Origin: an uncultured Candidatus Saccharibacteria bacterium
GTDB lineage: Bacteria > Patescibacteriota > Minisyncoccia > UBA6257 > 1-14-0-10-44-23
Direction: 5' to 3'
Assembly: GCA_964641225.1 (NCBI GenBank)
Contig: CAZXKC010000004.1
Coordinates: forward strand, 29,026 to 93,025
DNA length: 64,000 bases
Both the position numbers and the translations under genes were made by a program. The notes below the pieces were generated by a model. It was not told where the DNA came from and did no database searches. It was given only the letters and a program-made list of their open reading frames with translations. Within the stretch, counting starts at the first letter, position 1, and every line of letters begins with the position of its first letter. Shown here one piece after another: positions 4,442-38,178 of this stretch.

Positions 4442-4447
4442 AAAATA

Positions 4448-9582: not shown

Positions 9583-9663
9583 GTAGCACTCCTTGAGGGG
9601 TTGTTACGCTCCTGCACACGCAGTCGCTCTTCCCCGCACCCACCCTACCAAAATATTCTGCTC

Positions 9664-21112: not shown

Positions 21113-21197
21113 GGAGGGGTGGCAGAGTGGTCTAATGCACCGCACTTGAAATGCGGCGTGCCGCAAGGCACCGTGAGTTCGAATCTCACCTCCTCCG
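21113..21197 (+). tRNA. tRNA-Ser (anticodon TGA), class II
   Basis: Acceptor GGAGGGG/CTCCTCC, anticodon loop CTTGAAA, long variable arm, T-loop GTTCGAATC. Confidence 0.75.
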
Positions 21198-22790
21198 CAA
21201 GTTGAGATTCTTGTCATACCGAGCCTCCAAAGACCCCGTTCCGACGCGGGTTCTTGGAGGTTCGAATGAAGACTTGGTCTCTGGAACAGCAGCCGTGTAT
21301 TTTCTGATAAGAAACGCCGTGTTGCCGTTATCCCACTTCACTTTTTTGTCTAAGAGGCGGAGGTTCGAATCCTGCCCGAGGGCAGCGACAAATTCCCGTC
21401 GTTTTTCTGGCGTAGCCTTATCCCAGCGTTTAGCGACCTCAGTAGCGAAGACAAATCCTTCTTCGGCTTTATTAACCCAGTTCACCACCTCTGCGTTAAC
21501 CTCGTTAGCAACTTGATTAAGCCTAGCCTGGTCTTTAAGAAGCTCCTTTTTACGCTCCGCAAACTGCTTAGCATCAATCTCCTCATCAGCACGCATATCA
21601 ATGAGACGTTTGAGCCTCTGAGCACAGGCATCGTCGGCCCTACGCTGGGCGGTCAAGATTGCTTCCCGCTCACGGAATTGGTTCTCGTTTTCCTTTCTTA
21701 GTTTTGCCAAAGCCCAATCCCGGAAACGCGGAGAGATATCCATACCCTCAACAACCTCCTCGATCTGTTTTTCTAGAGCCTTCTCTTCCACGAGAGGCTG
21801 CGCACAGCGAGGTTTCAGCTGTTTAGTACAGTGATAATAGATATAGGTATGGACATTGCCGTTTTTCTGTCGTTTTATACGTTCCTCGGCAGTTATAGCT
21901 GCGCCACACGCCCCGCACCGAAGTATGCCGACATATTTAAACCAGCGTCGTTCCTGGGGCCGAGGCATACCTTTGCGGCCCAACAATTTTTGGACGCGAT
22001 CAAACTCTTCGAGGGTAACCATTGGCTTGTGATTTCCTTTATATAGCTTCCTGTTTTCTTCATTTCCATATTCAAACCACCCGTAGTAGAAGGGATTGTT
22101 AAAGAGATGGTAAATAGCTGCCCGAGAGATTGGATTACCACCACCGTTTCTTCGTAGAGGTGTTCGTAGGCCCCAATCCTTCGTAGCGATGTCGAGTACC
22201 TGCGGAGCGGTATAAGCACCAGTCAGCATGAGGTCCCATGCCTTGCGAACTAACGGGAAGATTTCCTCATCAACGAGAATCGTATTTGAACCCTTATCGC
22301 GCAGCCTGCTATTTTTATAGCCGATCGGAGCTGGCCCAGGACGCCAACCCATTCCGACCTTAGTATTCTGTCCGCGTTTTACGTTGGTGCTGAGGTCATC
22401 TACATATTTCTTGGCAATACCGAAGTCCAAGCTCATCATGAACTTGTCATCACCGTTGTTTCGGAAAACTTTCTCAGGTGTACGGATTTCCGTAATGAGG
22501 CCGCGATCCATAAACCAAGAAATTTTTCCACCATCCAACGCATTGCGTGCCAAACGGTCGAGCTTCCAAACTAGAAGTGCGCAACTTTTTTCTTTTTCGA
22601 GATAAGTGAGCATCTCTTCAAAGTGCGGGCGGCCCGGAGACTTGGCCGACTTGCTCTCCTTGAAGGTTGCACAAATCGTGAGCTTCTCGCGCCGCGCATA
22701 ACTCTTAAGTACCTCCTCTTGGGAATCTATCGAGAGAGCCTGCTTATCGTCTGATTCGGAACTTTTGCGGCAGTAGACAACGTACTTCAT
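21186..22790 (-). CDS. Large serine recombinase (integrase)
   Basis: N-terminal resolvase domain with catalytic Ser (YCRKSSESDD), a recombinase domain, a Cys4 zinc ribbon (CGACG...CTKQLKPRC) and a coiled-coil. The ORF 3' end overlaps the tRNA-Ser 3' end, so the true stop may lie earlier. Confidence 0.8.
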   Translation of the reverse strand: MKYVVYCRKSSESDDKQALSIDSQEEVLKSYARREKLTICATFKESKSAKSPGRPHFEEMLTYLEKEKSCALLVWKLDRLARNALDGGKISWFMDRGLITEIRTPEKVFRNNGDDKFMMSLDFGIAKKYVDDLSTNVKRGQNTKVGMGWRPGPAPIGYKNSRLRDKGSNTILVDEEIFPLVRKAWDLMLTGAYTAPQVLDIATKDWGLRTPLRRNGGGNPISRAAIYHLFNNPFYYGWFEYGNEENRKLYKGNHKPMVTLEEFDRVQKLLGRKGMPRPQERRWFKYVGILRCGACGAAITAEERIKRQKNGNVHTYIYYHCTKQLKPRCAQPLVEEKALEKQIEEVVEGMDISPRFRDWALAKLRKENENQFREREAILTAQRRADDACAQRLKRLIDMRADEEIDAKQFAERKKELLKDQARLNQVANEVNAEVVNWVNKAEEGFVFATEVAKRWDKATPEKRREFVAALGQDSNLRLLDKKVKWDNGNTAFLIRKYTAAVPETKSSFEPPRTRVGTGSLEARYDKNLNLRRR

Positions 22791-25442: not shown

Positions 25443-25589
25443 TCTTTATGGACGAGTTGACAGGGTTATGTCAATAGACTCCATATCTTACTTCCAAGCT
25501 AACTCAAGAGGTGATAAAATGTGCTTACAATTTAATACGCCGCAAGGCAGAGCCTAAACCGCCAAGAAATTGACGGCATGGCTCCGAAG

Positions 25590-25700
25590 TCCAATAACGA
25601 CCATTAAGCTCCTAGTCAGAGCGTCGTTATTGGCTATCCAGGGAAACTTGGGTAGGTCCCGTAAGGGATCGCTGGCTGGGAGCTTTGTGTTTCTCAGCCC
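25590..25700 (+). ncRNA. Structured 5' leader RNA, copy 1 (candidate riboswitch or cis-regulator), upstream of the 25719 operon
   Basis: Four helices, each with compensatory changes relative to copy 2. Hairpin 1 has an invariant 21-nt loop CAUUAAGCUCCUAGUCAGAGC. Hairpin 2 has loop GGAAAC. Hairpin 3 has a GNRA tetraloop. Hairpin 4 has loop GAGCUUUGUG, complementary to the loop-1 sequence AAGCUCC (predicted pseudoknot). Confidence 0.45.
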
Positions 25701-25718
25701 AAATAAAATTAATAAACT

Positions 25719-26156
25719 ATGCCCAAGACTGAACCAGAAAATCAGGGCGATGGGGAAATTCAATGGGTTGAGGCTGGTCTGATAAAGCCAGAGGGAGAAA
25801 TTAAGCATCCTGTATTACCAGTTGATCTGGTTACAAGGATAGAACGATTCGTAAAAGTATTTGGCGAAACATATCCGCTCTCGCTTGAAAGGACAATTTA
25901 TAATTTCAAACGGGAAGCTCATCCCGGCAGCGAAGTGGAAAGATGGGAAGCGATGGCGGAGGTTTATAGAGATTACCTTGTGAAAACTGAAGGTCTCTCT
26001 GCTGACCAGAAAAAGGAACTACTTTCGATATTGCTTTTTAGTGCAAGCGCGGCCAACAGACCGGGTGGATTTAGGTATTTCGATAAGCCAGCAATTCTGA
26101 GAATCACGAAAGAGCTGGAGAGGGCCTATGCAGTAATCCAATCAAGTAGAACTTAA
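25719..26156 (+). CDS. Hypothetical protein (145 aa), first gene after leader copy 1
   Basis: ATG follows the leader element. No recognisable domain. Confidence 0.4.
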   Translation: MPKTEPENQGDGEIQWVEAGLIKPEGEIKHPVLPVDLVTRIERFVKVFGETYPLSLERTIYNFKREAHPGSEVERWEAMAEVYRDYLVKTEGLSADQKKELLSILLFSASAANRPGGFRYFDKPAILRITKELERAYAVIQSSRT

Positions 26157-26170
26157 AAACTAATCACTAT

Positions 26171-26362
26171 ATGAACATCTTACTGATAGCGATAGTAGTA
26201 CTCCTGATAGTTATAGCCACGGCAGCAGTTATTAGTGCACTTAGCCAATCGAGCTTCGAACTAAAAGAAGTCTGGGTTATATTTTTGTGGGTAGTCGTTG
26301 GGGCGGCCGCAGTGACTGGAATAACTTACTGGGCGCTGAACTTTTTTAATATAATTCATTAA
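26171..26362 (+). CDS. Small two-TM membrane protein (63 aa)
   Basis: Two hydrophobic helices, tightly spaced in an operon. Confidence 0.35.
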   Translation: MNILLIAIVVLLIVIATAAVISALSQSSFELKEVWVIFLWVVVGAAAVTGITYWALNFFNIIH

Positions 26363-26366
26363 TATC

Positions 26367-26615
26367 ATGAAAAGAATTATCTACGCGATTGTATGCGCCA
26401 CCATTATCATTTCCTCGTACTGGCTATGGCACGCGGATAGATTGCAGGTTGAAAATGCAGAATGGTGCCTTACGCAAGAGGTATATCAATACGAAGTTTG
26501 TGGAGCTAAGGCTGAGCGTGACATTCAGCGAACGGTTTATCTGAAGGTGCTGATGTTTTCGTTCCTGGTCTTCGGCTCAACCAGTTTAGTTCTTAAGGCC
26601 AGGAAAATTTCTTAG
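26367..26615 (+). CDS. Small membrane protein (82 aa)
   Basis: N- and C-terminal hydrophobic helices, tightly spaced in an operon. Confidence 0.35.
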   Translation: MKRIIYAIVCATIIISSYWLWHADRLQVENAEWCLTQEVYQYEVCGAKAERDIQRTVYLKVLMFSFLVFGSTSLVLKARKIS

Positions 26616-26624
26616 AGGCCCGTC

Positions 26625-27656
26625 TTGGTATTTCCCTTGCCTCCGGAGCCGCTTTCGCTATTGGAAGGCCATAGCAGTAGCCTCAGTTATATCGAGATAC
26701 AAGAGAAGGGCAGGAAAAGCCCGGAACCCTTTATTTACGGGGCTAAACATAGTAGTCTCAAGCTAAGATATATGGTGATACCGGGCACAAAGGGCGTAGA
26801 TACCACAGGAGTCACGGCGGGCAACACCGGGAACGAATTGTTTTATTTTTGCATATCCGACACAGAGGATTCAGGCTACCTAGAGCGATTTATCGAACAA
26901 TTAGACGCCCACATACCGTCATTTGTTTTTTCAAAGGACACCCTTGCGAATTATGAGAGGCTTTTAGCAGAGGGAAAAACTTCAAAATCCCCACTGGAGC
27001 ATGCGCGACACCTTCTGCAAAAGACCAGGGCGGGCGGAACGGCCGGATCAGGAGAGCTAGGAGAACTACTGATGTTTCTTTTCGCTAAAAACGTAAAAGG
27101 TGCGAACAAGCTGGTTTCCAAAATTCAGAGCCGGACTAGCACTACGACAACCCAACAGGGGCGCGACGGCAGCTTTATATTGCAGGATGAGCGAGGGGAA
27201 ATTTATATGCTTCTAGGAGAGGCTAAGATGCACCAAGACTCCAATGACGGCTTGAGAGAGGCGCAAACAGATATGAATGCATTTTGGGGCGATCAGGAAC
27301 GTTTGAGCCACGAGATTCGCCTGGCTTCCAGCCACCTCCGCGATGAATTAACTCCCCAGAACACCGCGGCTTATGAAGCCTATTTCATCGACGATAATCC
27401 TAGGCATCAAGAATTGAAATATAAGAGTGTTGTTTTTGTGGGATTCAACTTTCCAGCGTTTTCTGCGCTGATTCAGAAAACAGCAGATTTCAACGCATTC
27501 AGTCAGGAAGTATTAGCCGACCTAAACCGATGTTTCAATAATCAGGCCGCACACATTACTGCTTCTCCGCACCCCAACATTTATTGCTTCGTACCCTTCG
27601 AATCAGTGGAAAGCGCACGGACAGCATTCGCTAGTCGCCACTCATTAACCCACTAA
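26625..27656 (+). CDS. HamA-like (DUF1837-like) putative PD-(D/E)xK effector of a Hachiman-like system
   Basis: Immediately precedes a large SF2 DEAH helicase, with stop and start adjacent. Possible D...(E)xK motif in FILQDERGEIYMLLGEAKM. The true start may be the internal Met (MVIPGTKG). Confidence 0.4.
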   Translation: MVFPLPPEPLSLLEGHSSSLSYIEIQEKGRKSPEPFIYGAKHSSLKLRYMVIPGTKGVDTTGVTAGNTGNELFYFCISDTEDSGYLERFIEQLDAHIPSFVFSKDTLANYERLLAEGKTSKSPLEHARHLLQKTRAGGTAGSGELGELLMFLFAKNVKGANKLVSKIQSRTSTTTTQQGRDGSFILQDERGEIYMLLGEAKMHQDSNDGLREAQTDMNAFWGDQERLSHEIRLASSHLRDELTPQNTAAYEAYFIDDNPRHQELKYKSVVFVGFNFPAFSALIQKTADFNAFSQEVLADLNRCFNNQAAHITASPHPNIYCFVPFESVESARTAFASRHSLTH

Positions 27657-27657
27657 T

Positions 27658-30333
27658 ATGCCAGACCCGGTCATAAACTTATCCAATAAGATTCGGGAAA
27701 GCGGGAAATTCAATGAACGTTTTCTTGCGCTGCAAAAATATGCCGCTAAAAAGCGACTCACCTTTAGCGCTGAGGATGCAACCCCTGAACAACTGCAAAA
27801 ATTGATACTCCAAGCTTCGGTGCTTGCATTGAGCGATGACATTGAGCACAAACGTACAGCTCAAAAAATCATGGCCTTGTTCCACGAGATAAAGCCGGAC
27901 AATCATTTACTAAGCTACGCGATACAAATTTTAGCATCACGACTTGGAAATTTTCCTGTCGTAAGTAATGCATCCACAGTCTTTGGTGAATCCAAAATAT
28001 TTAAAGATGCTTCTGATGAGGCTTCGTTGGATACAGAGTATCTTTTTGACCCTGAAATAATCGCCAACTTATACTCTGAAGAGGCTCAGTCACGATTACA
28101 GATACAAGATAAGGTTTACCATTTTAATATTTTCCAGAAAGAAATACTTGATGCCCTGTCAGAGAAGGCGTTGGTGAGCTTTTCTGCTCCCACATCATTT
28201 GGAAAATCATTCATCGTTCGGCAGCACATAGCGCATCTATATGCTGGTCAGAAAGTTAAACGGGTCCTAGTACTTGTTCCTACCAAGTCCCTGATCGATG
28301 ATTTCTTTGCGGATTTTGTAAAAATAAAACGAGAGCTGAATCTTGATTTTGGCATTTTTACTCACGCCCGTTCCGTAGATGCGGTTCCGGAGAAGGCGGT
28401 ATTTATTCTGACGCAAGAACGGATATCATTCCTCATCACCAAGAATCCTGAATTTGTTAAGTCTTTTGACTTGATTTACTGCGACGAAGCCCACTACATC
28501 TCCAGAGGATATCGCGGATTTGTTTTGCGAAGTGCTCTGAAAAAACTTATCGAGCTGTGCGGAGTGGGCATCGAGGAGGGCAAGGCTCGATATATTTTCA
28601 GCTCCCCATTGATTAAAAATCCTGAGTACTACAAGGGGAAGCTATTTCCCTTACTTTCCTCAGAGCAATCGTTTCATAAAGAAATTCTCTATTCACCGGT
28701 CGAAAAGAATATCCATTTTATTGCCAAAGAAGAGCGGCAATTTAAGTATTATCTTTTGAAGGATTCTTTTGGTGAAGATTCATTCGATGATCGGCTGGAA
28801 GAGCTCGGTTCCAGAAATTTTCCCCAAGGATTAATGACCGAGGATACGAGAGCACAAAAAATCGACCGAGAGATTCGAATGGTTCTGGACTGCAGTGGGA
28901 CAAGCCCTTCAATCTTGTATACCACCAGCCCAATTTTCGCCCACAGATACGCCTTAGCATTGGCCGAGGCTCGACCGGAACGCAACCGAATATCTAGTCA
29001 AGAAATCGAGGATTTGAGCAGATACATTAAAGACCATTACGATGACAACTTTGGCCTAGTGAATATCTTAAAGAAGGGCATCGGCTTGCACTATGGGCCG
29101 ATGCCGACTGGGCTTCGGAGAGCAATGGTTGACCTCTTCGAGCGAGGCCTGATTGATTACATGGTTTGCACCCCAACTCTTCTTGAGGGGGTCAATCTCC
29201 CAGCAAAAAATATCTTTTTATTCTCTGATAGGTATGGAGGGCACGGTGGCAAAGAAAAACACTCGGCGCTATCTTTCTGGAACTTAGTTGGTCGAGCCGG
29301 CAGAATCACTTATGGTCTTTCTGGAAATGTATTCTGCATTGAAGATGAGCCTCAAAAATACGAAGACCTCTTCGAAAATACTGAAACCGAGATAACTGAC
29401 CCGGAGGCGAACGTCATGGAGAATGACACTCGGAGGAGTTACATTGTAAAAACTTTTCTTTCTGAAACTGATAGGTTTGACTATTTTCGGTCACATAGTC
29501 GAGGTGATATAGAATACCTAATATTTGAACTTTTGACCCGTGAAAATCCCGAACGAATCTTGGACAATTTCAATCTTAACCCCGAAGAAAAAGCTAGGAT
29601 GCTTGCTGCTATTCAGCAGCAGAGAGCGGAACTGAGCATATCGTTAGAGCTGGTCAACAAGAACCCTGGCATCGACCCGCGCTTGCAGGATAGATTGTTA
29701 GCCAATCTGCGATCGCTCCCAGAAGAAGAGCTTCGTGGTTACTTGGAAATTCCAGGTAATACTTTGGCAGTTACCGGTTCGCAGCTAGCAGATATCCTTG
29801 GGTACGTAAAACGGGATTTGGCCTGGCCAAAAAGGGATGAAAGCAGAACTGCGAACCGAATTATCCAGTGGCTACACGAACATCCTATTTCTTTTTTTAT
29901 TAACCAAGTTTTGCAATATATCGAACCGGGCAGCGAATTCGACACCCACTTGGGGAAGATTGAAAAAGCTATCGAAATTCTTCGGGAGGTTGACCGAGAG
30001 TTATCCTACAACGCTCCCAAATATCTTAAATGCTTCTACGATTTACTCATTCAAATCGCCGCTGAACAAGGGATTGCCGATATAAATATCTATGAGGAAA
30101 AAATTGAATCATTCCTATTTTCGCTCGAGTCAGGCGTCTCTTCTGTAATAGCAAAATTTCTCCTCGAGAAGGGTGTTTCAAGGCCAGTTGCCATACGAGT
30201 AAGCAGTTTAGTTGATGATATAGCTTCAATCCCAATCTCAAATGATTTTTTCGAGAAACCCGAAGTCCTCGAGAGATTGAGTCGCCTCTCAAAACTCGCC
30301 CTAGATGAGCTTAAGGAGCGACTCGGTGTTTAG
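27658..30333 (+). CDS. SF2 DExH-box helicase (Ski2/Hel308-like core), HamB-like
   Basis: Motif I SAPTSFGKSF, motif II LIYCDEAHYI, helicase C-terminal motifs GIGLHYGPMP...MVCTPTLLEGVNLPA, and a long C-terminal extension. Confidence 0.6.
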   Translation: MPDPVINLSNKIRESGKFNERFLALQKYAAKKRLTFSAEDATPEQLQKLILQASVLALSDDIEHKRTAQKIMALFHEIKPDNHLLSYAIQILASRLGNFPVVSNASTVFGESKIFKDASDEASLDTEYLFDPEIIANLYSEEAQSRLQIQDKVYHFNIFQKEILDALSEKALVSFSAPTSFGKSFIVRQHIAHLYAGQKVKRVLVLVPTKSLIDDFFADFVKIKRELNLDFGIFTHARSVDAVPEKAVFILTQERISFLITKNPEFVKSFDLIYCDEAHYISRGYRGFVLRSALKKLIELCGVGIEEGKARYIFSSPLIKNPEYYKGKLFPLLSSEQSFHKEILYSPVEKNIHFIAKEERQFKYYLLKDSFGEDSFDDRLEELGSRNFPQGLMTEDTRAQKIDREIRMVLDCSGTSPSILYTTSPIFAHRYALALAEARPERNRISSQEIEDLSRYIKDHYDDNFGLVNILKKGIGLHYGPMPTGLRRAMVDLFERGLIDYMVCTPTLLEGVNLPAKNIFLFSDRYGGHGGKEKHSALSFWNLVGRAGRITYGLSGNVFCIEDEPQKYEDLFENTETEITDPEANVMENDTRRSYIVKTFLSETDRFDYFRSHSRGDIEYLIFELLTRENPERILDNFNLNPEEKARMLAAIQQQRAELSISLELVNKNPGIDPRLQDRLLANLRSLPEEELRGYLEIPGNTLAVTGSQLADILGYVKRDLAWPKRDESRTANRIIQWLHEHPISFFINQVLQYIEPGSEFDTHLGKIEKAIEILREVDRELSYNAPKYLKCFYDLLIQIAAEQGIADINIYEEKIESFLFSLESGVSSVIAKFLLEKGVSRPVAIRVSSLVDDIASIPISNDFFEKPEVLERLSRLSKLALDELKERLGV

Positions 30334-30808
30334 AATTACCTTCCTCGTCGTTACGATGAACATTAAATTGCATGAGGATTGGGCGAGGTTCAACTTGCCC
30401 GTCACCGCTCAAAGCCTCTTTGGTACTGAAATGTTTTCGGTCTAGTCGCTCAAGTACGAACTTAGAAAGATCGGCCTTGATTGCCATAATCTTGGTGTTC
30501 CGGCGCATGATGGGCTGGCCGGTGGCCTTATTCTTCATCGGTCCGAAGGCTGTCATTACCGGCTCGCTTTCATCGAGGGTAAGCATATCTTCTAGATTAC
30601 GCTCGGCTTTTTCAATCATCGCCTGATGCATGGTGACGGCTTCCGAAAGTACTTTTGGCGATTGATGAGTTATCTGCTTAGCGTAGGCGACGCTGTACCC
30701 GGCCTTCACAGCCGACTGATAGGCGTTTGCAAAGGTGGAGCTTTTTGGATCCACGTAGTAGGCCTGAAAAGCCAACTGTCTCATATCTCTTTGTTTGATG
30801 CCCGGCAT
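30311..30808 (-). CDS. Phage terminase small subunit-like protein (Terminase_2-like N-terminal HTH)
   Basis: N-terminal pattern RQLAFQAYYVDPKSSTFANAYQSAVKAGYSVAYAKQITHQSPKV matches the TerS consensus (QeaF..Yl...N...A...AGYS...A). No terminase large subunit or capsid genes are nearby. Confidence 0.45.
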   Translation of the reverse strand: MPGIKQRDMRQLAFQAYYVDPKSSTFANAYQSAVKAGYSVAYAKQITHQSPKVLSEAVTMHQAMIEKAERNLEDMLTLDESEPVMTAFGPMKNKATGQPIMRRNTKIMAIKADLSKFVLERLDRKHFSTKEALSGDGQVEPRPILMQFNVHRNDEEGNSKHRVAP

Positions 30809-30990
30809 GAAAAAATTTTATCATCCGCTATTCCAGGGGGACAAGTGTATCGATGTGGTTGACAAGATAGAGGGGCTATGTTATCTTGTTTTTGATATGA
30901 AATCCGTGACCGCACAATTTAGTTACTATTACGCCGCATATATAACCACCCGGGTGCGGTAACTTTGTCTTAAATAATATTGTCTCTACC

Positions 30991-31016
30991 AACCGCCCCC
31001 GAGCGGTTTTTTTGTT
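30991..31016 (+). terminator. Terminator-like hairpin (AACCGC-ccccga-GCGGTT followed by TTTTTTTG)
   Basis: Seen in the sequence. No plus-strand gene lies immediately upstream, so its function is uncertain. Confidence 0.2.
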
Positions 31017-31121
31017 TTCGCGATCTCGGGGGTATAGAGCAGCGTGTTTCTGAACGATCGTTCGTTCAGGCGCTGTAGAGGCCCCGGAGCCTCAAGAGTT
31101 CTTTGAAAGGAGAATAGCGTC

Positions 31122-31391
31122 ATGGCCACGATTCGCATTACTCAGGTTCTGGCTGGCGGGAAGATACTCGACCACGACTTCGCTGTGCCGGAGTCAGATC
31201 CGGTCGGTTTCGGCTGCTCCTGCGGGTTCATGCATCCCACATGCTGCGCCCGCGGCTGTGGGTGCATGCCGCAGATCCACCGCTACGTCAAGAAACTGCC
31301 TCACTCGTTGGAGTGGGGCGACCTGGTGGAGCGTCGTGGGAAGGTCGTGGCTGTGCCCGACAAGAAATCTGACGGTGGAGAGACGTACTAG
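31122..31391 (+). CDS. Small Cys-rich protein (high-GC cassette)
   Basis: Multiple CxxC/CC motifs (GCSCGFMHPTCCARGCGCMPQ). GC about 62%. Confidence 0.3.
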   Translation: MATIRITQVLAGGKILDHDFAVPESDPVGFGCSCGFMHPTCCARGCGCMPQIHRYVKKLPHSLEWGDLVERRGKVVAVPDKKSDGGETY

Positions 31392-31393
31392 CT

Positions 31394-31969
31394 GTGCGCG
31401 ACATCCTCGGCATCATCGCCGCAATCCTGACGCTCGCTGGGTTCATCCCGGCGGGCGTCGGAGCAGTACGCGGACCAGTTCGCCCAAGCAGGGCGACATG
31501 GCTCATCTGGGCGGCGGAGGCGGTACTCATCTACCAGACCTTCGCCGCCGCAACTCCGGACTCAAGCGCACTCTGGATTCCGCTGGGATTCACCGTAGGA
31601 GCGGCAGGGATGTTTCTCCTTTCGGTTTCATTCGGGGAGGCCGGGTGGAGTGCCCTCGACAAGTGGTGCCTGGCAGGAGCGGGTGGCACGATCATCGTCT
31701 GGCAACTCGTTGGACCTATCGCGGGGCTACTAGCTGGTATCGCTACCGACATGATCGGAGCGGTGCCGACGGTGGTCAAGACATGGAGAGATCCAAGTAG
31801 CGAAAGTCGTGCACAGTGGTTGCTTTGGTGGCTCGGTGCCATCTTCAACCTCTGCGCGATCAAAGACTGGCAATCCGTGGAGGCGGCGTACCCGCTCTAT
31901 GGAATTGTTCTGACAACTACAGTAGCCGGCATTATGGCCGGTAGAAAGAGGAAGTATGCCCAAGGCTAA
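31394..31969 (+). CDS. Polytopic membrane protein (high-GC cassette), paralogous to the native gene at 61801-62355
   Basis: GTG start. Shares ATWLIW...W...P...E...W(L/M) motifs and TM topology with the 61801 protein, although the two genes differ in GC by about 17 percentage points. Confidence 0.45.
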   Translation: MRDILGIIAAILTLAGFIPAGVGAVRGPVRPSRATWLIWAAEAVLIYQTFAAATPDSSALWIPLGFTVGAAGMFLLSVSFGEAGWSALDKWCLAGAGGTIIVWQLVGPIAGLLAGIATDMIGAVPTVVKTWRDPSSESRAQWLLWWLGAIFNLCAIKDWQSVEAAYPLYGIVLTTTVAGIMAGRKRKYAQG

Positions 31970-32519
31970 GGAAAAGGGATGGGTTCGTGCCCGCGACGAG
32001 AAGTACTACGTTGGCCAAGAGATCGACTTCACGGCCAACTACGACGACCACGCTCCCGAGGCGGTATTGAAGGCCATGTTCCACAACTACATGCCCGACA
32101 GGGCAGACGCCAAGTACGTGGACCTCAACCAGAAGGGCAAAAAGCCTCTCAGGGGCTACTGGTACTTCAAGGTCAAACTGCTCAACCCGTCTCGCGGTTT
32201 CTCGTACGAGGAGTCCGTAGAGTGGGCTCAGAGCTCGTACGTCGGGGGCAAGGGCGTAGTTCCCGGACATCTGGCGGTCGCCTTCGCCGAACAGTTCCCG
32301 CTCCTCGTCATGCTCGGCGACGTGAAGCTCACGGGAGGAATCTGGCGGCACGAGAACAGACTCACCTGCATCGAGCTCACCCAAGGCATCAACGGCAGCC
32401 AAGACATCCTCGCGTTCCGCTATCAGGACGGAGGAATGGTCTCGGATCACGACATCTGTCCGGTGATCATCGAGCAGGAGCAGATCGTGGTCCCGACTCG
32501 GAGAGGCCACGGCTACTAG
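31956..32519 (+). CDS. Hypothetical soluble protein (high-GC cassette)
   Basis: Protein-like composition. The overlapping minus-strand and Arg-rich alternative ORFs look like high-GC shadows. Confidence 0.35.
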   Translation: MPKAKEKGWVRARDEKYYVGQEIDFTANYDDHAPEAVLKAMFHNYMPDRADAKYVDLNQKGKKPLRGYWYFKVKLLNPSRGFSYEESVEWAQSSYVGGKGVVPGHLAVAFAEQFPLLVMLGDVKLTGGIWRHENRLTCIELTQGINGSQDILAFRYQDGGMVSDHDICPVIIEQEQIVVPTRRGHGY

Positions 32520-32575
32520 CCCACAGCACGCGCGGCGGCATCGACCCACAAGGTTGATGACCGCCGCGCTTCATT

Positions 32576-32980
32576 TTATACTTTGACGGTCTCGCGGTTC
32601 TGGAGTAAGGTTCGAACATCGTCTAACAGCTGCCGCACAGTAAGACTATCGGTATGTGTCAGCAGTAGATTGAAGGGAGAACGTAGCGTAAAATCTAGCT
32701 TCTTGCCATTCAGGACGCAGTTCTGAAGTAAGAAGCCCAAAAACTGGCGCTTTTCTTCAACTTCGGCACTATCAAATATCTCTTTTGCCCTCTTAGCGAT
32801 GTTAAGGGTCATATTTGCTGTGAGATAGAACTGCTCGTCGGCTTCCGAATGATCTTTCATTTGATCCAACACTTCGGCTTGCTTCTCTTTGTACTCTCTC
32901 AAGAAAGTGTCATACATTTCATCCGTAATCCGCCTTGATCTGCGGTAAATCCTAGCGTTTTTTATTTTGACCGACTCCAA
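32576..32980 (-). pseudogene. C-terminal fragment of a second large serine recombinase (remnant)
   Basis: Region TFLREYKEKQAEVLDQ...KRQFLGFLLQNCVLNGKKLDFTL resembles the conserved C-terminal coiled-coil region of large serine recombinases. No catalytic domain is present. Confidence 0.35.
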
Positions 32981-33071
32981 TAAAAGCTATACTATAAGCA
33001 TATCGTTTTTATAACAATTTAATGCAGTGAAGCCTAACCCGCGCGGGCAACCACGTGGTATGGCATCAAAT

Positions 33072-33185
33072 CCGGTAAAGGTCATTAAGCTCCTAGTCAG
33101 AGCTACCTTTACCGGTCATATCTGGAAACGGATATGGGTGGGCGCAAGCCCATCGCTGGCTAGGAGCTTTGTGATTTCTAGCCTG
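33072..33185 (+). ncRNA. Structured 5' leader RNA, copy 2, upstream of the 33201 operon
   Basis: Same four-helix architecture and conserved loops as copy 1, with different stem sequences (see copy 1). Confidence 0.45.
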
Positions 33186-33200
33186 TCTGAAATTAAAATT

Positions 33201-33878
33201 ATGGACAAGCAAAAAGAGAATGCCGCAATTAAGTTCTTTCGTAAGCATCCGATCCTTTCCTCAAATATAATCGGCATCATCCTCGGCATAGCGATAGCGT
33301 GGTGGCTCTGGCTTATTGCCTGCGTTCTCGGCTTTGTATTTTATTTCCACTACCAGAAAACACTGAAGCATGAAGTTGCCACAAATAAAGCGGCTAGCAA
33401 TGATGCCGTGAAAACCAAAAAGTGCCGTGCCTGCAAAATGGATATCGCGGCAGGGGCAACAAAATGTCCGCATTGCAGAACCGCTCAACCAAATAGCGTG
33501 GCGGCTGTATTTGGGCTATTTGGAATAATAGTTGCCGTTGTTGCCATCGTCGTTATTAGTAGTAATTCCGATACTTCCACGCCAACAAAGCAGAGCAAAT
33601 TAAATGATCCCACTATTGATTGGCAAAGTATCTGTTCAGCTTTTGACAATTTGAAAACGGCAAATATCGTCAAAAAAGTTGAGGGACGAAGTGTTTACGT
33701 TGCTCCTTTTTGGTGGAATGTGGCAAACATTGAAGATAAAAAAAATATTGGCTTTGGCTCTGCCTATTGCATCGCCCGCGACTTAAACTCAACGACTGTC
33801 TGGTCAGATATTTATGACTGGCAATCTGGCAAGAAATTAGCCCATTACAGTGAAGCGTGGGGCTTTTCAGTTGAGTAG
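33201..33878 (+). CDS. Membrane protein with a cytoplasmic CxxC...CxxC zinc ribbon
   Basis: The true start is the ATG at 33201 (MDKQKEN). The ORF-track start at 33027 would translate the leader RNA. Two TM helices flank CRACKMD...CPHCRT. Confidence 0.45.
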   Translation: MDKQKENAAIKFFRKHPILSSNIIGIILGIAIAWWLWLIACVLGFVFYFHYQKTLKHEVATNKAASNDAVKTKKCRACKMDIAAGATKCPHCRTAQPNSVAAVFGLFGIIVAVVAIVVISSNSDTSTPTKQSKLNDPTIDWQSICSAFDNLKTANIVKKVEGRSVYVAPFWWNVANIEDKKNIGFGSAYCIARDLNSTTVWSDIYDWQSGKKLAHYSEAWGFSVE

Positions 33879-33916
33879 TTTTCGCCGGCGAACACAATCG
33901 CTAAAATGGCGATTTC

Positions 33917-36900
33917 TTGATATGCTCAAAGGAAGACTTTGATAGAAAAGTTATGGATGGATTAGACCTCAATAAGTTTATTAAGTATTGTCTCGGCTAT
34001 ATTCAACTTACACGGCAGAGGGCTTTTGCGGTACAGCAAAAATCAGCAGTTGAGTTCCCAAAAAAGTACTTTGAACTTTCCGGCTTACTAAACGGCGAGG
34101 AGGACGATGCGCTAGGCGAGACAATTGCATTGCCGCTTTTTTATGATCTTGATCCTAAAGAAGTGAAGAAGGAGCAGAGGGATGAGTATGAAAAGCAAAA
34201 AATGTTTGCCGCAAAGATTGAAGATATCTATAACAAATATCGCAACGATCCTTTCACAAAACAAATAGCATTCAGTTTCGGTTATTTTGAAATTGAAATC
34301 CCAATTGAGCTTGAAGGCGAAGAGCTTGAATCAATTGAGAATGGAGAATCAGAGCCGCCGCCAAAGCAGGTAAAAATTGATCGCTACCCGCTCTTTAGTC
34401 TGATCGTGAAGATTGAAAAAGAAGAGAAGGGCAAGTATGTAGTCTACGCCGTGGATCAAGACATTCAGGTTAATCTTGGCGTACTTGAGCCAGTACTAGG
34501 CGAGAATCTTTATTACCAGTTATTAGATGACGTCGGCAAGAAAGAAATGGATGGGCTTTTTTCTTTGCCGCTCAAAAACATAGAAATCTTTACAGAGGTT
34601 TGGCACAAAATAAAGACAGTATTAAAACACACAAAGGCAAACTTTGATGAGGATTCTTTTAAGTTAGAAGAGATGCGCATTGCTATCGCACCTCGCGCTA
34701 ATTATTTTTTGGCAGAAGATTTACAGAAGCTCGCTAAGGTAGATCAGGATGCAATGAAGGATACATCGCTTTGCAGTTGGACGAGCAATGAAGGCATTAG
34801 CGGTACAAGTGAGATTCCTGAAGAGAAGGACCTATATTTTCCCTTCCTTTACGATAAATATAAGTTAAAAGTTCTATCGGTAATAAACAATAAAGGTGCG
34901 ATTGTTCAAGGACCGCCGGGCACTGGAAAATCGGAAACAATTGCTAACCTACTCTGTCATTTAGCCGCTCACGGCAAGCGCGTTTTATTTGTTAGCCAAA
35001 AAGCTCAAGCACTCAAAGTTGTAAAAGATAAGTTACGCAAACTAGATGTTAAATACCTCTTTGGTTATATCCCAAATCCAAGCTCGGCACAGCTTGGCGA
35101 AGATGACGAGGCTGATAGTATATCGCCGCAACTCGCCGGCCTTGGAGCGCATATTGATTCAATGGGTTATAAGTTTTATCCCCGAAAAGCAGGGATTGCC
35201 CAGCACGGCGACGGTGTCAGCGGGAACGTATCGCTAGCGCATCCTACGGCTTTAAAAGCAAAGCTAAAAAATGACTTCAACCAAACTATTGAGGTGCAAC
35301 GCAAGGCGTGGAAATTGGATCAAGAGTTTAAGGCTCTAGCCCTTTTTGATTTGCCGGTCGGAAATCCTAGCGCATTCACTAGTAATTTTAGCGAAAGTAA
35401 CCGCAAAGAAGTTAATCATCTGAAAGACGTAATCTCAAGCGCAATCAAGACGACGCAGAAATATGACGAAAGCGAATCTAAAAATGGTTTTGATGGTCTG
35501 TTCGGAAAAATAAATCTTCGGGAAAAGAGTTTCGCTACTGCTACTTATAAAATCAAAGAAGACATCGCCCGTTCGGGATTTGACGGACACGCACAGATGC
35601 TACGAGGCATAAATAATTTTATGCGTAATATGCGGCTGGGAGGCGTTCGTTCGGAATTGCCCCGCGAGGTTAGAGATTACATTGACCAAGAGTTAAAAAA
35701 GGACATCTCGCGCAATGATGCTTGTAAGCTCTTTGAAGACCTACACGTTTATTTTTGCCACCACGAAAATCTTATCAATCTTGAACAGGCAAAAAAGAAG
35801 CTATCGGCTACTTTAGAAGCTATAGGTTTGTCCGATAAAGAGTTTGGAGCAATAGAAGAGGTCATTGGAAAAACTGGTGAAAATGTTACGGACGTTAAGG
35901 AAAAAGTTTTGAGAACGAGGGTACTTCGGAAAGAACTACACGAGCTTGGCAAGCTGGGCGTTAATCCAAACGACGTAACTGAAAACATCAAAGATGCCGA
36001 AACGGAACGCAGGGATCGCGTGGCTTTATATCTCCAGAACATCGTCAATAGAAACATCCTAGAAAAGCTCGCGCAAGGACCAACGATTCGGCAGATTGTA
36101 GCTCGCTTGGCAAAAGCATTCGGCAAATCAAAGCGTGCGTTTAGGACATTTGATAAACTTCGCAAAGATCCTGATAACTTCAATGCCATTATGGACTTGA
36201 TTCCAGTCTGGATTATGGAGCTAGATGATGCCAGCCGCATCATTCCGCTTGAAGCCGGCGTGTTTGATTACGTCATTCTGGACGAGGCTTCACAGTGCAA
36301 TGTAGCATATACCCTCCCTGTTATGTTCCGTGCCAAGCAAGCCCTATTCGTGGGCGATAGCGAGCAGATGCGCGACAGTACGGTAATGTTTAAGTCCAAC
36401 CGATCCTTTGACGAATTGGCGCGTCGTTATGGTGTTCCCGAAGAAATGCAGATCAAGGCTAGCCAAGCAACTGTTCAGTCGGTTCTAGACATAGCTACTC
36501 TCCGAGGATTCCTGCCAGTACCGCTACGTTACCATTACCGCTCGCCGAACGAGCTAATTGGCTTCAGTAACCAGTATTTCTATAAACCCAAGTCAAAGGA
36601 CCTTATAGCCCTCAATAACACTTATTTGACCTACAAGGACACTAATCGTGTGATGCTTGTCCACGAAGTGAAGTCAGATTGGTCAGATGAGATTTCTGAC
36701 AACGCTAACGTTGCTGAAGCAAGTGAGATTCTAAAGCTTTTTAAGGAGCTACGTGATGATGCCAAATATGCTAGAAAATCAGTGGGCATTTTAACATTCT
36801 TCAACGCGCAAGCCGCTTTATTGCGTAAAACTTTTGAAGATGCCGGTTTTAAAGAAGATGAAGATAATTTCAAAATCAGCATCATTGAGGGCATTCAAGG

Positions 36901-37516: not shown

Positions 37517-37521
37517 ACTTC

Positions 37522-38172
37522 GTGGAAGAAATCTTGTATAGAACATACGCAAAGGTTGGAGCTTTCTTTACTGGTTCTCAAAGAAGGTATTTGTTTTACT
37601 CTATAGCTTTAATGGGACTAGCTATCGCCTTATTGTCTGGATTTTATTTTCAATTCAACATTGGAACTGAAACCCTATCTCTCATTTTTAACTCAATTGT
37701 TCAATCGCTTATAGCATTGGTTGGTCTTATGGCTGTAGTAGTCGTTTTTAAGTACCAGAGTATGGCAACACGGGAAGATCGGCTTTTAGAAGAACTGAAT
37801 AAGACGACTTCAGATCTTGCAATGCTCGGCGGAAATCTAAACGCAACCTCTGGAGAAGATTTAATTAACAATATCAATCCGCACGTACCCAAAACGCCAA
37901 CTGCTAATGACGGATTTAGAACTATTAAACTCAGGCGAGTTAAGCAGGAGTTGGAAGCTCATAATTTTTTGAAAACATTTTTAGGAGATTATATGATTAA
38001 AATGAGTATTTATGGTTTTACTATAGTTTTATTAAGCTTCCTAGCTCTAATTTTCGTCCCCTACTTTTCACAGCACTATTATCTAGCAATCAGTAGTCTG
38101 TATGTCTCATTATTCTTCGTTGCTGATATACTACGGCTAGTAATCAAGATTATCGCCGAAGCCGTATCTTAA
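37522..38172 (+). CDS. Four-TM membrane protein
   Basis: Hydrophobic helices at the N- and C-termini. Follows the helicase-nuclease gene by 6 nt. Confidence 0.4.
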   Translation: MEEILYRTYAKVGAFFTGSQRRYLFYSIALMGLAIALLSGFYFQFNIGTETLSLIFNSIVQSLIALVGLMAVVVVFKYQSMATREDRLLEELNKTTSDLAMLGGNLNATSGEDLINNINPHVPKTPTANDGFRTIKLRRVKQELEAHNFLKTFLGDYMIKMSIYGFTIVLLSFLALIFVPYFSQHYYLAISSLYVSLFFVADILRLVIKIIAEAVS

Positions 38173-38178
38173 AACTTT

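Follow-up and report, generated by a model that had tools for sequence, protein, structure and literature searches.

Two structured RNAs head two defence-like operons in the genome of an uncultured Candidatus Saccharibacteria bacterium, raising the question of what these RNAs are and what they do for the genes behind them. The window, i.e. the whole stretch of DNA analyzed, comprises 64,000 nt of contig CAZXKC010000004.1 (GCA_964641225.1, forward strand, 29,026-93,025). Both elements are located where the original prediction had put them, whereas the novelty claimed for them is rejected because cmscan matches both to the Rfam family LOOT (RF03000). Copy 1 scores 83.5 bits (E = 2.8e-14, model positions 1-121 of 121) and copy 2 89.4 bits (E = 1.2e-15, full-length), in each case about twice the gathering score of 46.4 bits, and our own extended covariance model finds the two window copies at 120.8 and 112.7 bits. 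Membership in this already catalogued orphan family is nearly certain. LOOT was presented as a supplementary motif by Weinberg et al. (2017, NAR 45:10811) and appears in a figure of the Rfam 14 paper as a 'metagenomic-based RNA'. In the searchable literature we found no function for it, nor any account of its leader position, promoter, cargo spectrum or start-region pairing. The two cores are built as follows:

25551..25670, plus strand: LOOT core of copy 1 (cmscan, RF03000)
25552-25582, plus strand: P1 of copy 1
25591-25601/25623-25633, plus strand: P2 of copy 1
25608-25611/25619-25622, plus strand: P2a of copy 1
25635-25642/25647-25654, plus strand: P3 of copy 1, GAAA loop at 25643-25646
25655-25660/25665-25670, plus strand: P4 of copy 1, GUAA loop
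33031..33154, plus strand: LOOT core of copy 2 (cmscan, RF03000, full-length)
33032-33064, plus strand: P1 of copy 2
33072-33082/33105-33115, plus strand: P2 of copy 2
33089-33092/33100-33103, plus strand: P2a of copy 2
33117-33124/33129-33136, plus strand: P3 of copy 2, GAAA loop
33137-33143/33148-33154, plus strand: P4 of copy 2, GCAA loop

Both copies share the P1/P2/P2a/P3/P4 layout of the Rfam model along with its CCUAA.C / G.AUGG internal loop, GAAA loop and GNRA-capped last hairpin; of the 8 bp that Rfam assigns to P2a, just the inner 4 can form in them. All four helices of the original prediction are present, including the stems CAAUAACGAC/GUCGUUAUUG and CCGGUAAAGGU/ACCUUUACCGG, as are the GGAAAC and GNRA hairpins, the fourth hairpin and the 21-nt loop CAUUAAGCUCCUAGUCAGAGC, which is identical in both copies. 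The predicted 5' limit, in contrast, has to be moved about 40 nt further upstream, to 25551 and 33031, because the 5' helix P1 (GCCUAA.CC ... GG.AUGGC) had been missed. That the element is a conserved structured RNA with compensatory stem substitutions is borne out by the two copies, which differ in just this way, and by comparison with 114 relatives, nearly all from Patescibacteria/CPR genomes. Within the window, an 18-nt core of this shared loop is present exactly two times (0.03 expected by chance), and both copies fold more stably than shuffled sequence (z = -4.3 for copy 1 and -7.0 for copy 2; 0 of 200 shuffles equally stable).

P1 of LOOT carries CCUAA(A/C)...(C/U)AUGG and P3 an invariant GAAA loop, and both CCUAA/AUGG and GAAA are upper-case, i.e. 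conserved, in the Rfam consensus. The P1 motif resembles the 11-nucleotide GAAA tetraloop receptor (CCUAAG...UAUGG) of group I/II introns and RNase P, and P1 of copy 2 even has the canonical UAUGG half. It differs in that the receptor's G.U position is A/C or C/U in LOOT and covaries in the family (A/C 90, C/U 21, C/C 4, A/U never). We infer that the P3 loop docks into this receptor-like internal loop of P1. A leader-processing RNA, self-cleaving or catalytic in another way, would also be compatible with a compact fold that can form a pseudoknot and has a tetraloop-receptor and unpaired bases that never vary, and several classes of ribozyme occur in association with phages or mobile elements. 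However, no ribozyme family is matched even at E up to 10 and no conserved cleavage-site signature was recognised, and we regard catalysis as extremely unlikely.

The surroundings of the cores point at a role in cis.

25512..25520, plus strand: promoter of copy 1, extended -10 (TGATAAAAT), reading TGaTAAAAT at the exact family spacing
25527..25536, plus strand: ACAATTTAAT motif of copy 1 at the inferred transcription start (family motif ACAAYTNAAT)
33014..33023, plus strand: ACAATTTAAT motif of copy 2 (family motif ACAAYTNAAT)

In 73 of 114 loci the motif ACAAYTNAAT precedes LOOT by 0-10 nt, and when the relatives are anchored on it, a TAnnnT hexamer appears at -12..-7, preceded by TG/G and a T-rich -35. 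A sigma-70-type promoter is thus situated just 5' of LOOT, some 10-25 nt upstream, and an ORF follows in the same orientation at a fixed short distance. In copy 2 the -10 element is less clear, and a promoter-like TTGACC-17-TACTAT is present at 32967-32995. Neither a covarying partner of the motif in the family nor complementarity to the start region was found. The first ATG ORF begins 55-110 nt past the P3 loop in nearly all loci, typically at about 70 nt and in both window copies at 71 nt; ORF starts fall into a fixed 80-nt interval in 68% of loci, compared with 10% of random same-strand positions. The spacing of 15-20 nt between element and ATG proposed originally agrees with the 19 nt (copy 1) and 17 nt (copy 2) found here. 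An in-frame GTG at 33027 is an unlikely start because it would translate through LOOT, and no canonical terminator resides between LOOT and ATG in the window. Each copy immediately precedes a plus-strand operon within an integrated island, as had been proposed, and in the window as well as in the family LOOT belongs to an mRNA as its 5' leader and is not a free-standing gene.

Beyond the core, the pairing between two loops that had been predicted is real, as family covariation attests, but it spans 17-19 bp instead of 7 bp and joins the P2 apex to a U-rich tail located 3' of the Rfam model:

25602..25619, plus strand: 5' strand of the long-range helix in copy 1, P2 apical loop including P2a (duplex energy, family alignment)
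25672..25689, plus strand: 3' strand in copy 1 with U-rich tail, outside the Rfam model
33083..33100, plus strand: 5' strand in copy 2 (duplex energy, MFE of the isolated element)
33156..33173, plus strand: 3' strand in copy 2 with U-rich tail (family alignment, duplex, MFE)

The duplexes amount to -25.1 kcal/mol in copy 1 and -25.4 kcal/mol in copy 2. While the Rfam model stops at P4 (121 positions), the window copies and the 114 relatives continue for about 30 nt past its end into the long-range helix, which overlaps Rfam's P2a, and the tail following the G-rich core has a mean of 6.6 U per 10 nt across the family. In a sequence-only MAFFT alignment, 17 of 17 tested pairs covary with changes in both partners; the proportion of paired cells is 88%, as against about 40% after sliding the partners. 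The mean duplex energy is -20.9 kcal/mol within a locus and -11.4 kcal/mol between mismatched loci, with the reservation that shuffle controls overstate significance because the 114 relatives share phylogenetic kinship. The relatives were gathered by a pattern fixing P1 and the GAAA loop, and the tail played no part in the choice of loci. Judged from the aligned sequences, the long-range helix is among the best-supported helices of the family.

This helix takes 18-20 of the about 21 nucleotides of the P2 loop; the linkers left over measure about 0 and 3 nt, and in most cases the helix also intrudes on the uppermost 1-2 bp of P2. On grounds of A-form geometry, the full long-range helix and a closed P2 would be mutually exclusive. 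Competition with internal pairings had been foreseen: the long-range helix overlaps the fourth predicted helix (here P5) and a small GCUC/GAGC hairpin and therefore competes rather than kisses.

25674..25699, plus strand: P5 hairpin of copy 1, GGCUGGG / CUCAGCC (-14.4 kcal/mol; in the MFE fold)
33158..33183, plus strand: P5 hairpin of copy 2, GGCUAGG / UCUAGCC (-12.8 kcal/mol)

The segment that forms the 5' strand of P5 also provides the 3' strand of the long-range helix. P5 is present in both window copies, in copy 2 in the P2-forced fold, but only in about half of the relatives, where a hairpin of this type (-12 kcal/mol or better) is found in 50% as against 23.5% of mismatched-locus controls. 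No U-tract follows P5 of copy 1. Since the long-range helix overlaps P2, P2a and P5, two folds compete, and both competing helices covary and physically overlap. Fold A would keep the long P2 closed with the P2a hairpin at its tip and hold the U-rich segment in P5, whereas in fold B nearly the whole P2 apical loop would pair with the U-rich segment in the 17-19-bp helix. Predicted energies, which leave out tertiary contacts and pseudoknots, are -60.8 (A) and -58.0 (B) kcal/mol for copy 1 and -75.7 and -74.4 kcal/mol for copy 2; across the family the two folds differ by a median of 4.5 kcal/mol, with fold B favored in 22% of loci. The MFE structure of the isolated element is fold A for copy 1 and fold B for copy 2. 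It is plausible from these near-equal energies that LOOT can switch between the two folds.

A further pairing concerns the translation start.

25700..25721, plus strand: A/U-rich initiation region of copy 1 lacking a Shine-Dalgarno sequence, with ATG at 25719 (read from the sequence)

Shine-Dalgarno motifs occur at background frequency only in these CPR loci. A duplex of -14 kcal/mol or better between the P2 3' strand and the start region is predicted in 27% of loci versus 3% of controls; these pairings span at least 20 different P2 sequences and reach or cover the AUG. The window copies lend this pairing no support (-7.6, i.e. background, and -5.5 kcal/mol), and 42 of 107 loci have neither it nor P5. 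Three exclusive pairs can be listed, namely P2 and the long-range helix, the long-range helix and P5, and P2 and the start-region pairing.

Rfam types LOOT as 'Gene; sRNA', which would imply an RNA of about 165 nt that ends at the U-rich tail and acts elsewhere, the downstream ORF being incidental or reached only via read-through in a dual-function arrangement. The conserved succession of a G/C-rich helix and a U-rich tail fits such a trans-acting RNA, as do the few loci without an ORF within 150 nt. We nevertheless consider it unlikely, as distance and orientation of the ORF start are fixed in most loci, as P5 and the start-region copy, both 3' of the putative end, track LOOT's locus-specific sequences, and as P2 differs between the copies in one genome, leaving no common antisense target.

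The two operons in the window are organized as follows:

25719..30333, plus strand: operon 1 with 145-aa, 63-aa and 82-aa ORFs, then HamA and HamB (Pfam, PADLOC, tight ORF spacing)
26625-27656, plus strand: HamA (Pfam HamA, E = 1.8e-27; PADLOC HamA, E = 1e-30)
27658-30333, plus strand: HamB (PADLOC HamB, E = 6e-119)
33201..39229, plus strand: operon 2 (Pfam, PADLOC)
33201-33878, plus strand: first gene of operon 2, 225-aa membrane protein
33917-37516, plus strand: 1199-aa SF1 helicase with MTES_1575 nuclease (Pfam AAA_11/AAA_12, REase_MTES_1575)
between helicase-nuclease and kinase, plus strand: 216-aa and 157-aa ORFs
38636-39229, plus strand: 197-aa uridine-kinase-like P-loop kinase (Pfam PRK)

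By Pfam and PADLOC, the pair described as Hachiman-like is a true Hachiman system. The defence-like character assigned to operon 2 is likewise upheld, the helicase-nuclease matching models of defence candidates (PADLOC PDC-S37, E = 1.5e-72; Hhe, E = 8.5e-37). The first ORF of operon 2 clusters with 13 other LOOT-led zinc-ribbon/TM proteins. The link to defence thus holds in the window and recurs in the family, where restriction-modification, Abi, superinfection-exclusion and other defence genes are found downstream of LOOT, but these are a minority and most first genes encode small membrane or secreted proteins of unassigned function. Taken on sequence evidence, in ultrasmall (CPR) bacteria LOOT forms the 5' leader of mobile genes for defence and for membrane proteins.

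Toxic or defence genes are numerous among this cargo, and LOOT might restrain the product of its own operon in an antitoxin-like manner or bind a common CPR regulator. A precedent is the abiF motif RNA RCd22, like LOOT an orphan motif of the 2017 screen, which occupies the 5' region of a phage-defence gene carried by a mobile element, regulates that gene, and binds and neutralises the neighbouring Abi toxin as a type III-like antitoxin (PMC12373285). RCd22 has its own partner protein, whereas the proteins headed by LOOT are unrelated, so that no single cognate protein could serve it. From locus to locus, neither the first nor the later genes are related: the largest cluster among the 109 LOOT-led first ORFs has 14 members and most are singletons, which excludes a specific LOOT-protein pair. 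A shared trans regulator is possible but unsupported, and we give protein binding of either kind very little credence. Processive antitermination after the fashion of phage HK022 put or Bacillus EAR, with the folded leader binding the transcribing RNA polymerase to read through terminators in long operons, appears very unlikely. It would agree with a position at the extreme 5' end of transcription units on mobile elements and with the length of the window operons (4.6 kb and 6 kb), but many LOOT units consist of one short gene, neither sequence nor Rfam relates LOOT to put or EAR, and the start-region pairing would be left unexplained.

A more serious, though still doubtful, option is that LOOT and its tail form a portable promoter-and-leader module that senses nothing and stabilises the mRNA 5' end, or insulates and boosts translation of horizontally acquired genes lacking Shine-Dalgarno sequences. 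The extreme diversity of the cargo and the location on mobile elements speak for it, as does the same P2/start-region module preceding unrelated ORFs; with no Shine-Dalgarno signal above background, leader structure would matter for every gene, and the P4 capping tetraloops (83 GNRA, 17 UUCG across the family) are stable ones. Mutually exclusive helices that each covary are, however, unexpected in a static stabiliser, and a tetraloop-receptor fold with many invariant unpaired nucleotides exceeds known 5' stabilisers.

We favor, at a probability of roughly one half, LOOT as a cis-acting bistable leader, for which the ON fold, the level of output (transcription or translation) and the existence of a trigger are all putative. 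Fold A would be the expressing state, with the tail locked in P5 and the A/U-rich start region open, and fold B the silent one. Silencing could be achieved by the G/C-rich long-range helix and U-rich tail resembling an intrinsic terminator, albeit with an unusual 'loop' of about 65 nt in the form of a three-helix junction, or, at about a quarter of loci, by pairing of the freed P2 3' strand with the start-codon region. Whatever stabilises the core, be it a small molecule, an ion, a protein or folding kinetics, would turn the cargo on, in the window the Hachiman and helicase-nuclease operons of the integrated element. Gating by a ligand, as suggested originally, is hypothetical, no ligand being indicated by the genes behind LOOT. 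Against the bistable leader stand the diverse downstream genes with no coherent regulon or hint of a ligand, unlike in most metabolite riboswitches, the accessory platform features (P5, start-region pairing) that are not universal, and the classification as an sRNA gene in Rfam.

Known riboswitches offer partial parallels. In cobalamin riboswitches, aptamer loop L5 forms a kissing loop with expression-platform loop L13, and in these and others with translational sequestering helices, mutually exclusive helices lie beside the start codon. LOOT resembles them in that a core loop pairs with a downstream expression-platform segment and helices that exclude one another are placed near the start codon; it differs in lacking sequence or model similarity, a known ligand and a coherent regulon, and in a pairing that is far longer and incompatible with the stem presenting it. 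The c-di-GMP-I riboswitch (GEMM-I) has a tetraloop/receptor-stabilised fold and heads heterogeneous genes, many of them membrane, surface or phage-related. LOOT, with its putative tetraloop/receptor fold and very heterogeneous cargo, is similar in this respect, and GEMM-I may illustrate how genes without relation to each other could be controlled by a single RNA sensor, although the architecture of LOOT is different and there is no Rfam match.

Upstream of both operons, a recombinase gene abuts a tRNA gene:

21113-21198, plus strand: tRNA-Ser (ARAGORN)
21186-22790, minus strand: large serine recombinase (Pfam Resolvase, Recombinase, Zn_ribbon_recom)

This arrangement (21113..22790) is likely the left end of the island that bears both LOOT operons; an att repeat was looked for and not found. 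The GC content is 0.40-0.47 over most of 22-40 kb compared with about 0.50 in the flanks, and a stretch at 31-33 kb reaches 0.53-0.60.

Scanning the whole window against Rfam 15 identifies both copies of the repeated element as LOOT (RF03000), a family that accounts for the only two above-threshold matches besides tRNAs. The copies exceed the curated gathering score of 46.4 bits and align to model positions 1-121 of 121:
25551-25670, LOOT copy 1, at the head of operon 1 (Hachiman), 83.5 bits, E = 3e-14
33031-33154, LOOT copy 2, at the head of operon 2 (helicase-nuclease), 89.4 bits, E = 1e-15
No other Rfam family is credible between 25300 and 33400, even among matches with E values up to 10. 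The original prediction had proposed a new RNA class and had itself named an Rfam search as the check; since both copies match RF03000, the novelty of the class is refuted. Its description of the repeat fares much better. The two copies, the four listed helices, the shared loop and the GGAAAC and GNRA hairpins can all be read at both sites, and the claimed combination of compensatory stem changes with conserved loops is borne out by a pairwise alignment of the copies, in which paired changes occur in every stem while loops and the 3' segment show few differences or none. The start of the element had been misplaced, as similarity begins about 40 nt further 5' and takes in an extra helix, with a motif of sequence ACAATTTAAT 5' of that again. 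The 21-nt loop between two long stems is the same in both copies (CAUUAAGCUCCUAGUCAGAGC), its 18-nt core occurring exactly twice in 64 kb (0.03 occurrences expected), and both copies fold far better than shuffled sequence (z = -4.3 for copy 1 and -7.0 for copy 2). The fourth hairpin ends 19 nt (copy 1) and 17 nt (copy 2) 5' of the ATG. The repeat structure is thus confirmed and far from chance, and it is nearly certain that both elements are LOOT RNAs that act in cis as mRNA leaders. The window holds exactly two copies. A 16-nt near-copy of the copy 2 P1 strand (CTATCCCGCGCGGGCA) at 40650-40665 was judged a chance match, as it is without a model match and lies within a coding ORF; by eye, the translation of this ORF appears to contain a PCHRV motif resembling that of O6-methylguanine-DNA methyltransferases.

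Among the helices of the Rfam model (P1-P4 and P2a), P1 is present together with its conserved internal loop CCUAAaC / GCAUGG, as GCCUAAACC...GGCAUGGC in copy 1 and GCCUAACCC...GGUAUGGC in copy 2. Both copies feature an 11-bp P2, an 8-bp P3 with a GAAA loop and a P4 capped by GUAA or GCAA. P2a comprises 8 bp in Rfam, and the window copies can form only 4 bp of it (GCUC/GAGC), with 3-4 non-canonical pairs flagged by Infernal. In a sequence alignment of 114 relatives the P2a columns are 64% paired, and the 3' tail is the better pairing partner for these nucleotides. The P1 motif of the family, CCUAA(A/C)...(C/U)AUGG, is closely similar to the 11-nt GAAA tetraloop receptor (CCUAAG...UAUGG), and the GAAA loop of P3 is conserved in the Rfam consensus. 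The variable positions of the receptor-like motif covary (A/C in 90 cases, C/U in 21, C/C in 4, never A/U), which suggests a non-canonical pair where the classical receptor has G.U. In the window, these positions are:
25558/25577, variable receptor-like positions of P1, copy 1
33038/33059, variable receptor-like positions of P1, copy 2
P4 is capped by GNRA at 83 loci and by UUCG at 17, so its loop probably serves stability and not a contact.

LOOT goes back to the screen of intergenic regions published by Weinberg/Breaker in 2017, where it is present only in the supplement. The Rfam 14 paper merely names it as a 'metagenomic-based RNA', the Rfam 15 paper reports two extra covarying pairs and the CaCoFold paper gives about 43 bp in six helices. 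A functional study was not found in the searchable literature. The Rfam model stops at the GNRA hairpin (P4), and therefore the fourth helix of the original prediction (here termed P5) and the 3' partner of its pseudoknot lie outside the catalogued model, which is truncated, as it lacks a strand of one of the helices with the best support in the family. To our knowledge of the searchable literature, what appears to be new compared with the catalogued motif is the 3' extension with its helix of 17-19 bp, the placement as a leader behind a promoter, the pairing with the start region at some loci and the range of cargo on CPR mobile elements.

Relatives were collected with a degenerate pattern in which P1 and the P3 loop were the only fixed parts, nothing 3' of the P3 loop being considered in the selection. 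The pattern matched at more than 117 places in species-representative genomes and at three in IMG/VR, and 114 distinct sequences remained once seven obvious false matches had been dropped. Nearly all stem from Patescibacteria/CPR (Saccharibacteria, Parcubacteria/Paceibacteria, Doudnabacteria, Microgenomates and others). An exact search of viral contigs with the shared loop gave no match; the three IMG/VR matches of the degenerate P1-P3 pattern consist of two true LOOT copies (L001 and L003) and a false one. The 114 sequences were aligned with MAFFT, and a search along every diagonal connecting the P2 apex to the part 3' of P4 brought out a single long run of complementary columns. This long-range helix, formed by the apical loop of P2 and the U-rich tail 3' of P4, consists of 17 pairs, every one of which (17/17) has changed on both sides, and 88% of its cells are paired as compared to about 35-49% when the partners are slid by 1-3 columns. 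Strands differ between subfamilies yet still match, as exemplified by GCUCCUAGUCAG / CUGGCUAGGAGC, by CCCAUCACAGG / CCUGUGGUGGG in a second subfamily and by GCUCGUCGUCAG / CUGGCGGCGAGC in a third. Duplexes of strands from the same locus reach a mean of -20.9 kcal/mol versus -11.4 kcal/mol for strands from different loci. The long-range helix and P3 are among the best-supported helices of LOOT. In the window, it is located as follows:
25602-25619 with 25672-25689, long-range helix of copy 1, -25.1 kcal/mol
33083-33100 with 33156-33173, long-range helix of copy 2, -25.4 kcal/mol
The loop-loop pseudoknot envisaged originally is therefore a real, covarying pairing, but with 17-19 bp instead of the 7 bp assumed. 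The helix encloses about 65 nt, comprising the P2 3' strand, P3 and P4. The tail that follows its G-rich 3' strand contains 6.6 U in 10 nt, which lends the helix a terminator-like look, and a role as terminator may be conjectured. Some of these U residues are themselves paired, with covariation, to a conserved A-rich stretch.

The long-range helix takes 18-20 of the roughly 21 loop nucleotides closed by P2, leaves about 0 and 3 nt unpaired at its two ends and takes over the top one or two pairs of P2 at most loci. As a duplex of about 19 bp, roughly 45-50 Å long, cannot fit into a closed stem with such linkers, the full helix and an intact P2 would be alternatives, a conclusion drawn from A-form geometry and not from a 3D model. 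The helix furthermore overlaps P2a, and its 3' strand is the 5' strand of P5. Competition of the pairing with internal and local hairpins had been part of the original prediction and is placed on firmer ground by the comparative data. Hairpins of the P5 type, scored as pairing of the long-range 3' strand with the next 40 nt at -12 kcal/mol or below, are present in 50% of loci versus 23.5% in mismatched-locus controls and in both window copies (-14.4 kcal/mol in copy 1, -12.8 kcal/mol in copy 2). P5 was rejected as a terminator, since it is without a following U-tract. When nested-structure energies are compared, the fold containing P2, P2a and P5 (fold A) and the fold containing the long-range helix (fold B) come out almost level, at -60.8 versus -58.0 kcal/mol in copy 1 and at -75.7 versus -74.4 kcal/mol in copy 2. 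The unconstrained minimum-energy fold is fold A for copy 1 and fold B for copy 2 in isolation. Across the family the median difference is 4.5 kcal/mol, fold B being the more stable one in 22% of loci.

The position of LOOT at the 5' end of transcripts is indicated from both sides. Upstream flanks anchored on the motif ACAAYTNAAT exhibit a sigma-70-type -10 element (TAnnnT at -12 to -7, the hexamer often being TATAAT or TATTAT with TG or G just 5' of it) and a T-rich -35 region. ACAAYTNAAT itself is present at 73 of the 114 loci, 0-10 nt 5' of LOOT and 6 nt downstream of the -10 box, and judging from this arrangement transcription would start at about its first A. The corresponding elements in the window are:
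25512-25520, extended -10 element of textbook form (TGATAAAAT), copy 1
25527-25536, ACAAYTNAAT-type motif, copy 1
33014-33023, ACAAYTNAAT-type motif, copy 2
The -10 element of copy 2 is less clear than that of copy 1. No column in the alignment of the relatives covaries with ACAAYTNAAT, and complementarity of the motif to the start region was not found, being if anything depleted in comparison with shuffles; the motif could be an operator, a signal in the initially transcribed region or a recognised 5' end. On the downstream side, the first ATG ORF lies on the same strand and 55-110 nt past the P3 loop at nearly all loci (71 nt in both window copies), and with strict criteria an ORF starts within a fixed 80-nt window at 68% of loci versus 10% of random same-strand positions. 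A canonical terminator between LOOT and the ATG was not found in the window. With a promoter 5', an ORF at a fixed short distance and no canonical terminator between, the proposal of a leader holds. Rfam assigns LOOT the type 'Gene; sRNA'. A trans-acting sRNA would bring its own promoter and terminator; LOOT has the promoter but, in the window, no canonical terminator ahead of the ATG, and the ORF start is tightly coupled to it. A conserved, covarying structured domain in the 5' untranslated region, as in riboswitches generally, is what is found here. Translation from the in-frame GTG at 33027 would run through the LOOT RNA, which makes this codon a very unlikely start. Counted over loci L004-L120 and the window, Shine-Dalgarno-like motifs are at background, preceding 6 of 108 first ORFs and 10% of all ORFs versus 9% of random positions. 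As such motifs occur only at background in these CPR loci, the GGAG of P5 was rejected as a sequestered Shine-Dalgarno sequence. The same absence of a signal makes it likely that initiation is governed by how accessible the A/U-rich start region is.

In part of the family the start region itself can pair with LOOT. At about 30% of loci (about 29 of 107, among them L004, L007, L009, L013, L016, L018, L028-L030, L053, L090, L098, L100 and L102), the junction and the P2 5' strand are repeated exactly over 9-15 nt, 0-11 nt upstream of the ATG. The repeated sequence is locus-specific, and no fewer than 20 different P2 sequences are each matched by a copy of their own in the start region. Pairing of the P2 3' strand with the start region reaches -14 kcal/mol or below at 27% of loci versus 3% in mismatched controls; the duplex is often at least as stable as P2 and reaches or covers the AUG. 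Differences between the copy and the P2 5' strand are wobble-compatible transitions, in a count that is biased by how it was made. The same module also precedes unrelated ORFs and therefore travels with LOOT and not with the gene. Both window copies are without this pairing (-7.6 kcal/mol for copy 1, -5.5 kcal/mol for copy 2). The idea that P5 and the start-region pairing are alternative platforms was rejected, as the two are uncorrelated, and 42 of 107 loci have neither.

We favour a bistable leader as the mechanism and give it about even odds. In the ON state, a LOOT core whose P2 is closed would, together with P5 at the loci that have one, leave the start region free and lock the tail away. 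In the OFF state, the long-range helix would form and P2 would open, upon which either transcription might terminate at the U-rich tail or the freed P2 3' strand might mask the start codon. Here we infer which state is ON, at which level control is exerted and that a trigger exists. The main rivals of this mechanism are a constitutive stabiliser or translation module, a terminated sRNA, which might have a dual function, a put/EAR-like antiterminator, a protein-binding RNA and a ribozyme. A leader of this kind turns an orphan motif into a concrete and testable regulatory device with defined ON and OFF mutants, and LOOT could serve the emerging genetics of Saccharibacteria as a native switch for expression.

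The genes downstream bear on what such a leader could respond to. Operon 1 starts with three small, tightly packed ORFs followed by HamA (E = 1e-30) and HamB (E = 6e-119). HamA (DUF1837) adjoins HamB (helicase) with overlapping stop and start, and on sequence grounds the cargo is a bona fide Hachiman pair. Operon 2 begins with a membrane protein, followed by an SF1 helicase of 1199 aa with a fused MTES_1575 nuclease (PADLOC PDC-S37/Hhe-like), two uncharacterised ORFs and a uridine-kinase-like P-loop kinase. Across the family, first ORFs (n = 109) are very diverse, the largest cluster consisting of 14 zinc-ribbon/TM proteins including that of the 225-aa ORF in the window, and a membrane segment is predicted for 75 of the 109. 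DNA methylases and restriction enzymes dominate among recognisable Pfam domains, which further include superinfection-immunity (Sie), Ltp-type exclusion, AbiEii, reverse transcriptase, SNase, DUF4352, bPH_2 and SHOCT domains as well as zinc-ribbon and uncharacterised families; PADLOC adds type I, II and III methyltransferases, PDC-S11/S18, DRT, DrmD, BrxH and others. The association with defence-like operons noted originally is thus real, as witnessed by Hachiman, helicase-nuclease, restriction-modification and Abi genes, but not exclusive across the family. The common theme of the cargo is accessory, mobile, surface and immunity genes and not one pathway. Unlike ToxI and the abiF motif/RCd22, each of which goes with one cognate toxin family, LOOT precedes proteins that are unrelated between loci, at variance with a type III antitoxin-like RNA, and the downstream genes share no function that would hint at a riboswitch ligand. 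This heterogeneity speaks against a metabolite of a specific pathway; a global signal, a protein or control by kinetics alone would be compatible with it.

Bacteria of the CPR have small genomes, and their gene regulation has been little studied. LOOT, like many structured RNAs from metagenomes, has been known only from a drawing and is now placed at the 5' ends of mRNAs that encode defence and membrane-protein cassettes on CPR mobile elements. It is conceivable, if rather unlikely, that LOOT is the sensor of a riboswitch-like RNA spread throughout the CPR/Patescibacteria that gates mobile defence, superinfection-exclusion and surface-protein cassettes via its switching helix of 17-19 bp. Candidate triggers would be an infection-linked signal, a second messenger or a host-contact state. 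If true, regulator-poor bacteria would possess a single RNA control point for 'immune and surface' accessory genes, and a trigger, if there is one, would show how ultrasmall episymbionts time the expression of anti-phage systems.

Several observations concern the surroundings of LOOT:
21113-22790, tRNA-Ser(tga) and, overlapping its 3' end, a large serine recombinase on the minus strand (Resolvase, Recombinase and Zn ribbon, 534 aa)
about 22 to 40 kb, stretch of mostly lower GC starting at the serine recombinase
30991-31008, good terminator-like hairpin closing operon 1
31000-33000, GC-rich region between the LOOT operons (0.53-0.60 versus about 0.44 around), without Pfam matches and with ORFs that overlap on both strands
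Because the stretch of lower GC, which contains both LOOT operons, begins at a recombinase abutting tRNA-Ser, it is probably an integrated mobile element; an att repeat of at least 14 nt was not found for the island. Arrays of LOOT cassettes were considered and rejected, a single tandem with a degenerate second copy being present in approximately 0.8 Mb of loci:
4208-4348 and 4391-4554, both minus strand, tandem pair in which a degenerate copy (29 bits) lies directly downstream of a full LOOT, locus L089
A close relative of the window LOOT adjoins a divergent large serine recombinase on a 12-kb contig classified as 'viral':
8361-9948, LOOT and recombinase, locus L001 (IMGVR_UViG_3300009694_001303)
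The contig also carries ParB-methylase, Bro-N, Schlafen-AlbA_2 and restriction-modification methylase genes, and LOOT thus travels on mobile elements.
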